From contig JAVBUE010000004.1 of assembly GCA_031555735.1 (NCBI GenBank), positions 1,790-65,789 on the forward strand: a stretch of DNA of 64,000 bases, written 5' to 3'. Source of the stretch: Tannerellaceae bacterium (GTDB taxonomy: Bacteria; Bacteroidota; Bacteroidia; Bacteroidales; Tannerellaceae). The position numbers and the translations under genes were made by a program. The stretch's first letter is position 1, and every line of letters starts with the position of its first letter. The notes under the pieces were generated by a model. It did not search any database. It worked only from the letters and a program-made list of their open reading frames with translations, and had not been told where the DNA came from. This document shows positions 1,876-62,426 of the stretch, piece after piece.

Positions 1876-1981
1876 TTCTCCCTTATCAACCCAACGAAAC
1901 GAAGAAGGTATTACGCTGTAATTGAACACTTTCAACCATTCATCAGAAGAAACAGTTTATACTCCCTTCCGGTTTCCGCCA

Positions 1982-2013
1982 CAAAGATAGCACCCACCCG
2001 GTAAACAGCCAAA
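1982..2013 (-). promoter_or_regulatory. full Bacteroidota-type promoter TTTG-N20-TAtcTTTG (minus strand) with no ORF downstream before the 1841-1875 terminator
   Basis: + strand CAAAGATA at 1982-1989 and again at 2010-2017. On the minus strand the TTTG of the upstream copy (2013-2010) lies exactly 20 nt before the TA of the downstream TATCTTTG, matching the -33 TTTG / -7 TAnnTTTG consensus spacing (19-21). Confidence 0.45.
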
Positions 2014-2028
2014 GATATAGATAAAAAA

Positions 2029-2048
2029 TAATGTACGCGCGTACATTA
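2029..2048. repeat. 20-bp perfect palindrome TAATGTACGCGCGTACATTA
   Basis: Read directly from the sequence and self-complementary over all 20 nt. It lies 15 nt upstream (minus-strand sense) of the -33 TTTG of the 1982-2013 promoter. Confidence 0.9.
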
Positions 2049-2067
2049 ATACATATAAACGAAAAGA

Positions 2068-2226
2068 GTCACATCTGCCACGCGCTTCCATCCGGTGGAA
2101 CAAAAGTTTCATCCTGATGGGACAAAAAGTTTCATTGGGTAGAACAAACAGTTCCAATAGGTGGGAAAAACAGTTCCATTAGGTAGATCTTTTTGTTTCA
2201 ATAGGTGGAAACCCGGAGAATCGCTG
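2068..2226 (+). repeat. composite intergenic repeat, copy 1: GTCACATCTGCCACGCG module plus six ~22-bp phased GTTYCA-N4-5-GGTRG(G)AA units
   Basis: Units at 2085-2212: cttccatccggtggaac / aaaagtttcatcctgatgggac / aaaaagtttcattgggtagaac / aaacagttccaataggtgggaa / aaacagttccattaggtagatc / tttttgtttcaataggtggaaac. 2103-2178 is identical to 62294-62369 (76/76 by eye). Confidence 0.9.
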
Positions 2227-16582: not shown

Positions 16583-16636
16583 GCCTTCAAAGTCCTTAAA
16601 GCCCTTGTAGCCCTTAAAGCCCTTGAAGCCCTTCAA
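16583..16636 (+). repeat. six tandem 9-bp units GCCCTTNAA in the leuA-leuC spacer
   Basis: gccttcaaa gtccttaaa gcccttgta gcccttaaa gcccttgaa gcccttcaa, read directly from the sequence. Stops occur in the + frames, so it is non-coding. Confidence 0.9.
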
Positions 16637-18071: not shown

Positions 18072-18098
18072 ACAGATCAGACAGATCAGACAGATGAA
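18072..18098 (+). repeat. three tandem 9-bp units ACAGATCAG/ACAGATCAG/ACAGATGAA in the leuC-leuD spacer, the last containing the probable leuD ATG
   Basis: Read directly: acagatcag acagatcag acagatgaa. Confidence 0.9.
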
Positions 18099-18684
18099 AC
18101 AGAAAATCAATAACATCACATCCACCTGCGTTCCCCTACCCCTGGAGAATGTGGACACAGACCAGATTATTCCGGCGCGATTCCTGAAAGCGACGACACG
18201 CGAAGGTTTCGGCGATAACCTCTTCCGCGACTGGAAGTACGACAAGGAAGGGAAACTGAACCCGGACTTTGTGCTCAACCAGGGCGTTTATAAAGGGGAG
18301 ATACTTGTAGCCGGTAAAAACTTCGGCAGTGGCAGCAGCCGCGAACATGCCGCATGGGCAATTGCCGGTTATGGGTTCAAAGTAGTTGTCAGCAGCTTCT
18401 TTGCCGATATATTCAAGAACAATTCGATGAACAACGGCCTGCTGCCTGTGGTCGTCTCACCGGAGTTCCTGGCGGAAATCTTCGATTCCATCGAGGCTGA
18501 TCCCGCCCATACGTTGACCGTCAACCTCGCCGCCCAAACCGTTACCAACAACGCCACGGGCCACAGCGAGCACTTCGACATCAACGCCTATAAGAAGGAC
18601 TGCCTCCTCAACGGCCTCGACGACATCGACTACCTCCTCGCCAACAAATCCAAAATCGAAAGCTATGAAGCAAATAGATCATAA
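18094..18684 (+). CDS. leuD: 3-isopropylmalate dehydratase, small subunit
   Basis: [32 protein letters not shown] aligns with the E. coli LeuD N-terminus, so I prefer the ATG at 18094 over the track start at 18064. Also [16 protein letters not shown]. Confidence 0.93.
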
Positions 18685-21270: not shown

Positions 21271-21389
21271 GCCGTAGGAAGACGGATCGTCCGCATACGG
21301 ATCGTCTTTTTCAGCCCCTTCTTTTGTCAACAACCGTATCTTCTATGGTCCTCAATAAGAGGAAGTAATGTCACGATGCGGAGGGTTTA

Positions 21390-21477
21390 TTCTTCCCACC
21401 GTGGTGGAAACATCTTCCCACCCTTGTGGGAACCTCTTTCCACCACGGTGGGAAGAGGTTTCCACAAGGGTGGGAAG
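21390..21477. repeat. four exactly 22-bp phased quasi-palindromic units TTCCCACC-N2-4-GGTGG(G)AA arranged U1 U2 rc(U1) rc(U2)
   Basis: ttcttcccaccgtggtggaaac | atcttcccacccttgtgggaac | ctctttccaccacggtgggaag | aggtttccacaagggtgggaag. It lies between the convergent leuB and galM genes. Confidence 0.9.
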
Positions 21478-21577
21478 AATAGTTCTTCCGGATGCCTGAC
21501 TTAGATCTACCTGATGCTGACGATAATTCATCCGGTTGTTGACAATAGAGCCGTAGAGTCCCTTCTCGATCGTTCGC

Positions 21578-33072: not shown

Positions 33073-33480
33073 ATGAAACGTTTAGTAATCGCAGTAGCCG
33101 CAATGGCAATGAGTGTATCCCTGAGTTTTGCACAACGTCCGCAAATGGCAAAAGAACCGTTCGCAATCAACCTCGACAAGCTGAGCCAGTGCTTGCAACT
33201 GGAAGCGTACCAACAGGGGAAAGTAGCCGCGATCAACGCCGCATTTGCCCAGTCACAACAGGAAAACCGGTTCGCTCGCATCCCCCGGCATGCAAAAGAC
33301 AAACAGGTACGTCAACTGTATGCCACTCATCTCCAATCCATGAGAGAGGTACTGACAAACGACCAGCTCCGCACGTACACCACCATCCTGAACGCGACGT
33401 ACAACAACCAGCAGCTTCAGAACCAAGAGCTCCGTACCAACCGGTATCTGGCGGAAAGAAGAACGATCGACAGGGAATAG
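33073..33480 (+). CDS. small periplasmic helical protein, possibly Spy/CpxP-like (one LTxxQ motif)
   Basis: 135 aa. Signal MKRLVIAVAAMAMSVSLSFAQ, Gln/Ala-rich helices, VLTNDQLRTY. The family call is weak. Confidence 0.45.
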   Translation: MKRLVIAVAAMAMSVSLSFAQRPQMAKEPFAINLDKLSQCLQLEAYQQGKVAAINAAFAQSQQENRFARIPRHAKDKQVRQLYATHLQSMREVLTNDQLRTYTTILNATYNNQQLQNQELRTNRYLAERRTIDRE

Positions 33481-33561
33481 ATCATTACAGATCATCAAAG
33501 AAAACGGCAAGGTGCATGTGTGTATCAAAAGTAATCCGGCACACAGATGACACAGATTAAA

Positions 33562-33625
33562 ACAGATGACCACAGATTCTTTTAGGTTGATTATTAAATC
33601 GTCTAAAGGATCTGTGGTCATCTGT
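33562..33625. repeat. long hairpin (16 bp perfect + 5 more incl. one G-U) preceded by CACAGAT direct repeats
   Basis: ACAGATGACCACAGAT (33562-33577) is perfectly complementary to ATCTGTGGTCATCTGT (33610-33625). CACAGAT/ACAGAT occurs 4 times in 33540-33577. It lies 80 nt downstream of the 33073-33480 gene; the U-tract is poor (TTGTATCCC). Confidence 0.85.
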
Positions 33626-33704
33626 TTGTATCCCAAAAAAAGCGCTTTGTGAGTAGATAAACGTCTTTCCGTGAAGAAAATACCGGATATGAACACTTTT
33701 ATCC

Positions 33705-33712
33705 TACCTTTG
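33705..33712 (+). promoter_or_regulatory. -7 box TAccTTTG for eutH
   Basis: 14 nt upstream of the ATG at 33727. Confidence 0.4.
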
Positions 33713-33726
33713 GACATAAATATCGA

Positions 33727-42159: not shown

Positions 42160-42268
42160 CTTCCACCTTCCACTAAGGGGTGTTATCGCGCAGAGAAACA
42201 ACAAGATAGACAGTGGAAGGAGACGTGTTTTCCCTTCCACTTTTCGTCCACTCTGCTTCCACTGTGTG
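42160..42268 (+). repeat. left arm; contains TTCCAC/GTGGAA hexamers, three of them at 11-bp spacing
   Basis: CTTCCACCTTCCAC at the tip; TTCCAC 42235-42240, GTCCAC 42246-42251, TTCCAC 42257-42262. Confidence 0.9.
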
Positions 42269-42295
42269 GTAAATGCTCCGACAATTACGTATGCT

Positions 42296-42315
42296 GTCCC
42301 ATTTCGAAATGGGAC
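42296..42315. repeat. 20-bp perfect palindrome GTCCCATTTCGAAATGGGAC in the core of the element
   Basis: Read directly. It is followed by a second inverted repeat, CATTTCAATCT (42321-42331) / AGATTGAAATG (42360-42370). Confidence 0.9.
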
Positions 42316-42374
42316 ACAGGCATTTCAATCTGCGTGTAGATGTTGTGCTATCTGCATGTAGATTGAAATGTTGA

Positions 42375-42462
42375 GACAATCATAGGTAAATGGTCTGACA
42401 ACCATAGGTAGATGTTTGAACTGCCATAGGTAGATGTTTGAACAATCATAGGTGGATGTTTT
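42375..42462 (+). repeat. four exactly 22-bp tandem units AAC(A)ANCATAGGTAGATGTTTG in the core
   Basis: gacaatcataggtaaatggtct | gacaaccataggtagatgtttg | aactgccataggtagatgtttg | aacaatcataggtggatgtttt. It shares CCAT(T)AGGTAGAT with the unit at 2172-2193. Confidence 0.9.
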
Positions 42463-42477
42463 GAGCTTTACAAGACA

Positions 42478-42589
42478 CACACGCAGTGGAAGCAGAGTGG
42501 ATGGAAAGTGGAAGGAAAAAACACGTCTCCTTCCACTGTCTATCTTGTTGTTTCTCTGCGCGATAACACCCCTTAGTGGAAGGTGGAAG
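42478..42589 (-). repeat. right arm (reverse complement of the left arm)
   Basis: See the whole-element entry; read directly. Confidence 0.9.
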
Positions 42590-47076: not shown

Positions 47077-48200
47077 ATCAACAGTTCTTTCGAATTGGCA
47101 TAGTTACGCCATTTATCTATCAATTGTTCCATATCGGAAGGAATCTCAGAGGTAAAAAACATTTCTTCGCCCGTCACCGGATGCACGAATCCCAGTGTCT
47201 GGGCATGCAATGCCTGACGGGGACAAACGGAAAAGCAGTTTTGCACGAATTGTTTGTATTTGGCGAAGGTGGTTCCTTTCAGTATCTCATTGCCTCCGTA
47301 GCGGGAGTCGTTGAAGAGGATATGGCCGATATAACGCATATGGACACGTATCTGGTGGGTACGTCCTGTCTCCAGCCTGCATTGCACGAGGGATACATAG
47401 CCCAGCCGTTCCAATACCTTGTAATGGGTCACCGCAGGTTTCCCCTGGTCGCCTTCGGAAAATACTTTCATCTGCATGCGGTCGCGGGGATCCCGGCCGA
47501 TATTGCCTTCTATCCGTCCTTCATTCTCCTGAACGATGCCCCATACCAGGGCTACATACTGGCGACGGGTGGTTTTATGGAAGAACTGGAGGCTGAGGTG
47601 AGACTTCGCCTGCGGACGCTTGGCGATGACGAGCAACCCGGAAGTGTCTTTATCGATCCGGTGAACCAGACCCACGTTGATATCCATCGGATCAAATAAG
47701 GGATCGTCTTTCAGGTAGTAAGCGAGGGCGTTGACCAGCGTACCGGAGTAATTCCCGTGTCCGGGATGTACTACCAGGCCTGCCGGTTTGTTGATCACCA
47801 TCAGGTATTCGTCTTCATATACTACATTGAGGGGGATATTTTCGGGCAGGATCTCTACTTCGCGGCGGGGACGATCCATCACTACCGAGATCACATCCTG
47901 GGGTTTGACCCGGTAGTTGCTTTTGACTGACTTATCGTTGACAAGGATGCAGCCGGCTTCAGCGGCTAGCTGGATCCGGTTACGGGTGATCCCCATGATC
48001 CGGTCGGTCAGGAACTTATCCACACGGATAAGCGTCTGCCCCTTGTCGGCGACGAAGCGGTAGTGCTCATACATCGGGGAGGATCCGGCTTCTTCTGCCG
48101 GCTGCAACAGTTCGTCGCCTAACTGCTCTCCGTCCAACTGATCGTCGTCCAACTGATCGTCGTCTATTTCTTCATCAAACGTTTTCATGGCTAAAACCAT
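47073..48200 (-). CDS. rluD: RluA-family 23S rRNA pseudouridine synthase (RluD-like) with an acidic repeat N-terminus
   Basis: S4 domain (RVDKFLTDRIMGITRNRIQ), catalytic HRIDKDTSGLLVIAK, GRTHQIRVH. An alternative ATG at 48188 avoids overlap with the PASTA gene. Confidence 0.9.
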   Translation of the reverse strand: MVLAMKTFDEEIDDDQLDDDQLDGEQLGDELLQPAEEAGSSPMYEHYRFVADKGQTLIRVDKFLTDRIMGITRNRIQLAAEAGCILVNDKSVKSNYRVKPQDVISVVMDRPRREVEILPENIPLNVVYEDEYLMVINKPAGLVVHPGHGNYSGTLVNALAYYLKDDPLFDPMDINVGLVHRIDKDTSGLLVIAKRPQAKSHLSLQFFHKTTRRQYVALVWGIVQENEGRIEGNIGRDPRDRMQMKVFSEGDQGKPAVTHYKVLERLGYVSLVQCRLETGRTHQIRVHMRYIGHILFNDSRYGGNEILKGTTFAKYKQFVQNCFSVCPRQALHAQTLGFVHPVTGEEMFFTSEIPSDMEQLIDKWRNYANSKELLI

Positions 48201-62146: not shown

Positions 62147-62264
62147 ATCTGTCACGCTGCCACGCAACAGGCTCTATTTTATTGTTCATGAATAAGTTAG
62201 ATATGTGACAGATACCCGTGGCAGATCCGTTTTTTCGCCTTTTTGCTGTCACATCTGCCACGCG
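62147..62264. repeat. three copies of a TGTCAC-N-CTGCCACG module in alternating orientation, forming nested hairpins
   Basis: atctgtcacgctgccacgc (62147-62165), inverted tgtgacagatacccgtggcagat (62204-62226), tgtcacatctgccacgcg (62247-62264). CGTGGCAGAT (62217-62226) is perfectly complementary to ATCTGCCACG (62253-62262). Confidence 0.85.
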
Positions 62265-62412
62265 ATGACTAAAAGTTTTGTCCTGATGGAACTAAAGTTT
62301 CATCCTGATGGGACAAAAAGTTTCATTGGGTAGAACAAACAGTTCCAATAGGTGGGAAAAACAGTTCCAATAGGTGAACCTTTTTGTTCCATTAGGTGGA
62401 AACTCGGAGAGT
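62248..62412 (+). repeat. composite intergenic repeat, copy 2 (same orientation as 2068-2226): GTCACATCTGCCACGCG plus six ~22-bp units
   Basis: aaaagttttgtcctgatggaact / aaagtttcatcctgatgggac / aaaaagtttcattgggtagaac / aaacagttccaataggtgggaa / aaacagttccaataggtgaacc / tttttgttccattaggtggaaac. 62294-62369 is identical to 2103-2178. Confidence 0.9.
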
Positions 62413-62426
62413 TGTCATCGGGTATT

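Follow-up and report, generated by a model that had tools for sequence, protein, structure and literature searches.

A probable dispersed non-coding repeat built of phased 22-bp palindromic units in a Tannerellaceae genome

Results

Two copies of a phased repeat array in unrelated surroundings

We analysed a stretch of 64,000 nucleotides from a Tannerellaceae bacterium (GenBank assembly GCA_031555735.1, contig JAVBUE010000004.1, positions 1,790 to 65,789 of the forward strand), hereafter the window, in which a composite non-coding element made of a leader, an array of 22-bp units and a short tail occurs twice. Copy 1 is located within a 780-bp intergenic region between two divergent genes, one for a signal-peptide protein (minus strand, start 1644) and the other higB (start 2427). 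To its right lie HigB (PF05015) with a helix-turn-helix (HTH) antitoxin-like protein, followed by a second HTH protein with AbiEii, in agreement with a first-pass annotation of the sequence that had placed this copy in AT-rich accessory DNA with two addiction modules. The GC content of the window from position 1 to about 4500 is 37-42%, versus 52% for the whole window. This low-GC block, which contains the signal-peptide protein (without a Pfam match), the HigB/HTH pair and the HTH/AbiEii pair, was probably acquired horizontally. Copy 2 lies between the stop codon of birA (PF03099) and the start of the urocanase gene of the hut operon, both on the minus strand, as the earlier placement between birA and hutU had it. 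The neighbours of the two copies (a secreted protein of unknown family, HigB/HTH, HTH/AbiEii, MscS, BirA and urocanase) thus form unrelated contexts, low-GC secreted-protein gene/higB for one and birA/hut operon for the other, which supports dispersal. The parts of the two copies are as follows.

2068-2084, plus strand: leader of copy 1, GTCACATCTGCCACGCG (exact 17-mer; start of the homology)
2085-2212, plus strand: array of copy 1, six 22-bp units with TTYCA...TRGRA arms, a CAWTRGGTRG core and an A-tract spacer (Tandem Repeats Finder, TRF; anchors)
2103-2178, plus strand: 76-nt core identical to 62294-62369 (longest common substring)
2213-2223, plus strand: shared tail of copy 1, CCGGAGAATCG (alignment with 62404-62414; similarity ends here)
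62149-62228: two more leader-like motifs upstream of copy 2, TGTCACGCTGCCACGC at 62150 (plus strand) and GATCTGCCACGGGTATCTGTCACAT at 62204-62228 (minus strand) (sequence reading)
62248-62264, plus strand: leader of copy 2 (exact 17-mer)
62265-62403, plus strand: array of copy 2, an 11-nt insert ATGACTAAAAG and then six 22-bp units (TRF, alignment)
62404-62414, plus strand: shared tail of copy 2, TCGGAGAGTTG (alignment)

The longest exact match between the two regions was 76 nt (2103-2178 and 62294-62369), and the perfect identity that had been read for this core held at all 76 bases on computation. In register, 2096-2223 and 62287-62414 were identical at 118 of 128 positions, with all 10 mismatches outside the core. 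The leader 17-mer occurred exactly twice in the window, at 2068 and 62248 on the same strand, confirming its recurrence at the second locus in the same orientation. A MAFFT alignment confined the homology to 2068-2223 and 62248-62414; it begins exactly at the leader and stops about 11 nt past the last unit. Each copy measures about 150-160 nt and comprises six near-palindromic 22-bp modules in phase, preceded by a leader of 17 nt and followed by a short tail. Identity between the copies is distributed as a mosaic: the leader is identical, unit 1 is divergent, units 2-4 are identical (the 76-nt block) and units 5-6 have diverged. This pattern fits conversion among members of a family, and it is reasonable to take the 76-nt identity as implying recent copying or gene conversion.

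TRF reported a period of 22 at both copies, with unit-to-unit matches of 75-83%. The GGTRG/GATGG anchors were found at 2094, 2116, 2138, 2160, 2182 and 2204 in copy 1 and at 62285, 62307, 62329, 62351, 62373 and 62395 in copy 2, so that each copy holds six units in exact 22-bp phasing, free of insertions and deletions. An array of period 21-23 with a TRF score of at least 65 appeared in none of 100 second-order Markov shuffles of the window. Six head-to-tail units of 21-23 bp had been described before for copy 1, and their number stands; the units are not purely head-to-tail, as the last one or two have a T-rich and not an A-rich spacer and are reverse complements of the first units. The last unit of copy 1 was read as inverted because of its T-rich spacer, and an internal inverted symmetry joins 2106-2129 to 2189-2212 in this copy. 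Copy 2 had been credited with one swapped unit; it also has six units, and differs from copy 1 in its divergent first unit and in the 11 nt ATGACTAAAAG inserted behind the leader.

The units abut one another and the 5-6 nt between the arms are an A/T tract, which differs from the unique spacers of CRISPR arrays. A 7-bp terminal inverted repeat was present only in copy 2 (CGATGAC at 62263 and GTCATCG at 62418), where it is paired in the predicted fold. As noted earlier, the only open reading frame (ORF) across copy 1 is one of 66 aa with a TTG start (1957-2157, minus strand). No promoter-like site was predicted at either copy, and the Bacteroidetes -7 box TAnnTTTG was absent from the units of the two copies (type A) when the sequence was read by eye. 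Among the leader-like motifs at 62149-62228, a terminator-like minus-strand hairpin is predicted at TGTCACGCTGCCACGC (62170-62149); both motifs may belong to the element.

Two further arrays in the window

Four 22-bp arrays, all of them intergenic and three among housekeeping genes, were present in the 64 kb, since TRF added 21391-21476 and 42371-42461 to the two copies described above.

21376-21493: array B, four 22-bp units TTCCCAC-N4-GTGGGAA, two forward and two inverted (TRF 21391-21476; surroundings 21320-21549)
42160-42589: element C, four 22-bp units CCATAGGTAGATGTTTGAACAA (42371-42461, TRF) enclosed by 72-nt inverted repeats

Array B folds back on itself with 57-nt arms that are 81% complementary, and is flanked by the 13-bp inverted repeats TTGTCAACAACCG and CGGTTGTTGACAA. 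Its neighbours are the convergent leuB-like (isopropylmalate-dehydrogenase-like) and galM-like (aldose epimerase) genes, as identified by Pfam, between which it may act as a bidirectional terminator. In element C, the inverted repeats are perfect over 72 nt (42160-42231 and 42518-42589), reach about 110 nt at 90% and enclose a segment of 286 nt; AGTGGAAG is abundant in their arms, spaced at 11 bp. The element is situated between an arginase-family gene and a 1000-aa tetratricopeptide repeat gene, upstream of the latter, and could be a foldback element or an invertible segment. The units of array C have a CAWTAGGTRG core in common with the type-A units.

Searches with Pfam identified no replication initiator, partition, transposase or recombinase gene adjoining any of the four arrays. 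Neither parA/parB nor parM/parR was found among the genes flanking them, and no transposase was found beside the arrays or among the other window genes checked against Pfam. No gene for a RAYT, the transposase associated with repetitive extragenic palindromic (REP) sequences, was seen within the window. A ToxI-like arrangement was likewise not found, the gene downstream of copy 1 being HigB with a protein antitoxin and the other arrays having no toxin neighbour.

The window contains other short repeats. Tandem repeats in long ORFs at 16584-16633 (9 nt), 18072-18103 (9 nt) and 48112-48164 (15 nt) have periods that are multiples of three and probably encode peptide repeats. An inverted repeat of 28 nt, 89% complementary and with a 22-nt loop, lies at 33555-33632, near the end of the ORF 33253-33717.

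Related arrays in other Bacteroidales

A two-unit pattern (TTCC...GGAA arms, 22-nt period) was scanned against 185,579 species genomes, one per species; L-numbers below are the labels of loci and contigs retrieved in these scans. The pattern was found at 66 loci, about 55 of them in Bacteroidales and four in proteobacterial plasmid-type iterons; the genome of the window was not itself among them. Eight genomes of rumen Prevotella carry 4-9 loci each, and several other Bacteroidales genomes have one or two. These results suggest that 22-nt hairpin minisatellites are common in rumen Prevotella and occur also in a few Bacteroides and Tannerellaceae/Porphyromonadaceae genomes. The Prevotella arrays are built of GTTCCATGGGGTGGAACAnTTT-like units, often within larger composites with other 22-nt unit types that are likewise short-palindromic. 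They lie close to gene ends, and their orientation relative to the flanking genes (++ 9, -- 9, +- 7, -+ 2) shows no strand bias. No conserved neighbouring ORF that could be a candidate transposase was found around them. A query made of the concatenated six-frame "shadow peptide" of the window array found nothing. In the literature we found neither these unit sequences given in any relevant connection nor repeats of this kind described for Prevotella.

In the first-pass annotation, copy 1 was taken as a possible remnant of a plasmid or of an integrative and conjugative element, with iterons, a partition centromere or a multi-operator region preserved from its maintenance region; copy 2 would then be a stray copy. 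Directly repeated 22-bp units are the classic architecture of iterons, copy 1 does lie in AT-rich accessory DNA beside toxin-antitoxin modules, and our search pattern also retrieved genuine TrfA-type iterons. In the control L037, a TrfA gene is directly followed by almost identical 22-bp GTTCCAGCGGGTAGGCGATACC repeats. This contig has the array at either end and encodes MobA as well, and is thus probably a circular plasmid of 5.6 kb. Three further small proteobacterial contigs (L011, L044 and L055) also have GTTCCAGCGGGTAGGCGATACC iterons downstream of a replication-initiator gene, TrfA being Pfam-confirmed in L037 only. Such iterons resemble the window arrays in the 22-bp period and the several direct copies, and their match to GTTCCA-N3-GGTAG is one of chance. 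True iterons, however, adjoin the initiator gene, are near-identical, have one orientation and are not dispersed between chromosomal housekeeping genes. By contrast, the units in the window are degenerate (75-83% alike), near-palindromic and partly inverted, whereas the TrfA iterons of L037 are almost identical and in a single orientation. No rep or par gene was found within the window around copy 1 or beside the other arrays, three of the four arrays lie between housekeeping genes, and neither blastn against 72,556 plasmids and 50,697 phages nor the pattern scan of viral contigs gave a match. On the absence of rep/par genes and of plasmid or phage similarity, and on the degenerate inverted units, the reading as iterons or a maintenance site was rejected, and we regard it as scarcely credible.

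Arrays of 22-nt units were also found in frame within conserved Prevotella genes, namely those of a THUMP-like S-adenosylmethionine methyltransferase, a large glycosidase-like protein and one other (L007, L022, L074, L075 and L076 filled, L073 without array; also L013/L052 and L010/L050). The THUMP-like methyltransferase is 71% identical on either side of the array; its homologues of 386-388 aa are without the array, and others have 16-30 extra residues at the same point. The units at this site vary by species (TTCCA/TGGAA, TTCCCAC/GTGGGAA, TTCCC/GGGAA or TTCCCA/TGGGAA), with the 22-nt period kept in all of them, and TTCCCAC/GTGGGAA is the unit type of array B in the window. The outer TTCC/GGAA is constant while the inner arm bases covary. 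The in-gene arrays consist of units alone, lacking leader and tail. Since arrays at the same site have species-specific units and a constant 22-nt period, they are long-lived and evolve in concert. The class behaves as selfish or neutral quasi-palindromic minisatellites and not as a conserved operator, although the constancy of the outer-arm sequence leaves room for a specific recognising factor.

Such a factor is the core of another explanation, a phased protein-binding array in which each 22-bp unit would be the site of a Bacteroidales-conserved dimeric protein (a nucleoid protein, a regulator or the element's recombinase), with TTCC-N-GGAA bound on one helix face every two turns. The exact phasing without insertions or deletions and the single A-tract per unit are in keeping with this, as are the same outer TTCC/GGAA in Tannerellaceae, Prevotella and Bacteroides with covarying inner arms and drifting loops. 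The arrays have no orientation bias with respect to transcription, as expected of a feature acting at the DNA level, and the conserved core of arrays A and C is asymmetric, suggesting recognition of sequence and not merely of a hairpin. However, no candidate binding protein adjoins any array and no neighbour is common to the four arrays of the window. The arrays are, moreover, tolerated within coding sequences and missing from close homologues, the units of one array are only 75-83% alike, and the constancy of TTCC/GGAA is partly imposed by the search pattern. We therefore consider a binding array rather unlikely.

Several features of the Prevotella loci were observed besides the arrays. A conserved module of about 130 nt, GGGCAAAATCGCC..CTTGTCACC..TAGTTTTGCAAGGCGGCAACGGTGACAAGGG..TACGTGTAGGGA, lies 90-265 nt downstream of arrays at L003, L005, L006, L064, L065, L066 and others. 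It contains a Bacteroidetes -7-like box, is followed by a hairpin that covaries in sequence between loci, has no Rfam match, and may be an unannotated small-RNA gene family. The GTCAC..TGCCAC motif is about 5-fold enriched near arrays, at few independent loci. GTCAC..TGCCAC motifs upstream of copy 2 had suggested homology to the conserved Prevotella flanking module; this was a resemblance by eye, and was dropped when an nhmmer profile of the module gave no match in the window. Further tandem arrays at Prevotella loci (L054 3936-4021, L050 129-187, L035 1251-1369, L015 252-323 and L027 7526-7586) have unrelated units with the same 22-nt period and a short palindrome in most units; what stays constant in arrays at these loci appears to be their period and not their sequence. 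At L008, L014 and L016 (and L041) the array has the same place, between a 146-aa gene and a gene of 615-638 aa that is primase-like by eye; this site may be a shared mobile element with an array copy. An Rfam match to the FopS small RNA (73 bits) at L009 4056-4123, also a Prevotella locus, is unrelated to the arrays.

Predicted folding of the two copies

For both copies, pairing between left-hand and right-hand units was predicted to give one long, imperfect hairpin. On the plus strand, the folding energy was -50.4 kcal/mol (z -3.0) for copy 1 and -57.0 kcal/mol (z -3.9) for copy 2; the corresponding minus-strand values were -39.0 kcal/mol (z -1.0) and -48.3 kcal/mol (z -3.05). The plus-strand fold is the stronger because of G-U pairs. 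Since the last units are inverted, the whole of about 150 nt folds into one long hairpin on either strand, and extrusion of a cruciform from the duplex could in principle take place.

This hairpin raises the question of a structured RNA, either a cis-acting stem-loop in an untranslated region (a terminator, stabiliser or attenuator) or a small RNA of repeated hairpins that would sequester an RNA-binding protein. Its predicted stability is significantly greater than that of shuffled sequence and higher on the plus strand, and copy 2, read in the direction of birA transcription, comes after the birA stop codon and before a terminator-like hairpin. Against these points, the more stable plus strand is antisense to both genes flanking copy 2, the related Prevotella arrays have no orientation preference, neither copy has a predicted promoter-like site, and array B lies between convergent genes and copy 1 between divergent ones. 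A check against Rfam found that the copies match no known RNA family: nothing reached the gathering score in the window, and at E <= 1 the two intergenic regions matched only a plant microRNA model (E 0.24), a hit of no relevance. A structured RNA is accordingly a quite improbable explanation of the two copies.

Discussion

Likeness to known repeat systems

The layout of the two copies is most readily compared with BrickBuilt, a MITE-like (miniature inverted-repeat transposable element) repeat of Porphyromonas gingivalis that is intergenic and dispersed, with 19 copies in strain ATCC 33277 (Klein et al. 2015, PMC4596501). It is composed of a leader, spacer-less tandem short repeats and a tail, forms a long stem-loop and has arrays of up to 22.8 units; the unit is AGACCATAGTATCCTCTCATATG with a period of 23 nt, and leaders and tails of up to about 300 nt end in IS5-like terminal repeats GAGACCTTTGCA (PMC4596501). 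The window element shares with BrickBuilt the Bacteroidales host, the intergenic and dispersed positions, the leader/spacer-less repeats/tail structure, the long predicted stem-loop, the lack of an Rfam match and the narrow host range. A weak likeness is CCATAG, which occurs in the BrickBuilt unit and in the units of arrays A and C. In contrast, the present element has a 22-nt period, TTYCA..GGTRGRA units, six units, a 17-nt leader and a tail of about 11 nt. The BrickBuilt unit AGACCATAGTATCCTCTCATATG had no match in the window with up to 3 mismatches. Its terminal repeat GAGACCTTTGCA had three window matches with 2 mismatches, where 4.5 are expected by chance, and none was near an array.

This comparison bears on the possibility of a classical MITE, that is, a deleted form of an insertion sequence whose terminal inverted repeats are recognised by a DDE transposase acting in trans, an origin that has been proposed for BrickBuilt. 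The element is small, non-coding, multi-copy and intergenic with a BrickBuilt-like leader-repeats-tail layout; copy 2 has the CGATGAC...GTCATCG terminal repeat, and arrays B and C have flanking inverted repeats of 13 bp and 72 nt, of different sequence. Copy 1, however, has no counterpart of the copy 2 terminal repeat, and target-site duplications are missing from both copies. The IS5-type repeat GAGACCTTTGCA lies near no array, no transposase gene was found beside the arrays or among the Pfam-checked genes of the window, and the in-gene Prevotella arrays have neither leader nor tail. Taken together, these data make a classical MITE improbable.

REP sequences and their assemblies, bacterial interspersed mosaic elements (BIMEs) and REPINs, are short imperfect intergenic palindromes, often combined with other short motifs in tandem or mixed-orientation mosaics (Di Nocera et al. 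2013, PMC3733652; Quentin et al. 2018, PMC6006769). In-frame insertions into genes have been reported for REPs, and termination, mRNA stability and supercoiling have been proposed as by-product roles (PMC3733652, PMC6006769). The arrays described here are alike in being a mosaic of short palindromes, in having a GT[AG]G motif in every unit and in their in-frame insertions. They differ in that GGTRG or GATGG lies within the 3' arm of the TTYCA..TRGRA palindrome and not in an unpaired 5' foot, and in their weak, AT-rich stems. The REPs listed for the Bacteroidetes-dominated RAYT subclass 2.6 are GC-rich hairpins without TTCC/GGAA arms, from organisms whose codes we read as non-Bacteroidales, and the published motifs of this subclass had no match to the window units. 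Elsewhere, the BOX elements of Streptococcus pneumoniae have a modular boxA-(boxB)n-boxC structure with a tandem middle module (boxB, 45 nt) and a stable fold, and the Rickettsia palindromic elements lie in frame in protein-coding genes. The modular layout of the former and the in-frame insertion of the latter, which is like that of the Prevotella arrays, have parallels here, whereas the taxa and sequences are unrelated, the unit lengths are other and 22-nt phasing is absent.

A dispersed repeat of the Bacteroidales

With due reserve, we consider both loci to be probable copies of a dispersed repeat, non-coding and non-autonomous, in a Tannerellaceae-like genome. A dispersed repeat family had been the second suggestion of the first-pass annotation, and it is borne out by the near-identical copies in unrelated contexts, by two related arrays in the same 64 kb and by similar arrays in other Bacteroidales. 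By their unit pattern and period, the window repeats are part of a wider Bacteroidales class with a 22-nt period and TTCC...GGAA arms, which is intergenic in either orientation and occasionally in frame. The best reading of them is as mosaic palindromic repeats, selfish or neutral, that form a new family with an architecture closest to BrickBuilt and REP/BIME clusters; the element works like both of these and is a demonstrable member of neither.

Several observations weigh against this reading. Only two copies of the exact family were retrieved, both in the window; its pattern was found in no GTDB representative, and a family-specific pattern scan of metagenomes returned one loosely similar contig, L072. 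No direct repeat that could be a target-site duplication was present at the boundaries 2068/2223 and 62248/62414, and no empty site was found for either copy. In the closest relatives (L069 and L070, with BirA 79-83% identical), the gene order after birA is another one and 22-bp arrays are absent; because of this difference in synteny, no empty site is definable. Similarity of its BirA marks the genome of the window as that of a Tannerellaceae/Parabacteroides-like organism. The link of the window arrays to the Prevotella class rests on the shared unit pattern and period, which are partly imposed by the search pattern, and the nhmmer profile of the conserved Prevotella flanking module had no match in the window (best E 1.8, elsewhere), so that homology of the flanks is not claimed. 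As no transposase or RAYT was identified, the copying mechanism is a matter of conjecture. Finally, TTCC/GGAA is kept as a sequence across genera, and not only as complementarity, which hints at a specific trans-acting factor, so that a host function is conceivable.

If the two loci are copies of a dispersed repeat, the element would behave as selfish or neutral DNA and not as a site serving a neighbouring gene. Copies may have been made or homogenised by ectopic recombination, gene conversion or an enzyme that recognises the hairpin and directs its transposition, and the number of units would have changed by replication slippage or unequal exchange. Palindromy could be kept by template switching in quasi-palindromes, or by a factor recognising the TTCC/GGAA arms. 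Effects on the host would then be by-products, such as a stem-loop in the birA 3' region upstream of hutU; bending by phased A-tracts in the higB promoter region may be another. A more far-reaching proposal, which we put forward as possible and on the whole doubtful, is that the arrays are undescribed, Bacteroidales-wide mobile or self-propagating minisatellites (22-nt period, short palindromes, commonly TTCC...GGAA) recognised and copied by an order-specific conserved trans-acting enzyme or DNA-binding protein, in a REP/RAYT-like system of a new type.

To our knowledge, small dispersed repeats are poorly catalogued in Bacteroidota, with BrickBuilt as the main described case. The present analysis removes a false lead, in that there is no plasmid or integrative-element maintenance site here. 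It also has a practical side: short-read assemblies are interrupted at arrays of this kind, which in metagenome-assembled genomes of Bacteroidales can give rise to false ORFs or to peptide insertions in frame. The Logan short-read contigs with the birA (6.9 kb) and higB (1.3 kb) genes of the same genome break inside the arrays, the one ending at window position 62363 and the other starting at 2205, which speaks for a dispersed repeat. For the Bacteroidales, the arrays are long-lived at orthologous sites, where the unit sequence is replaced over time but period and palindromy are retained. Should a dedicated enzyme or binding protein be behind them, they would represent a repeat-host system of a new kind, in one of the major gut phyla; without a dedicated factor, they would be a clean natural example of the concerted evolution of quasi-palindromes.

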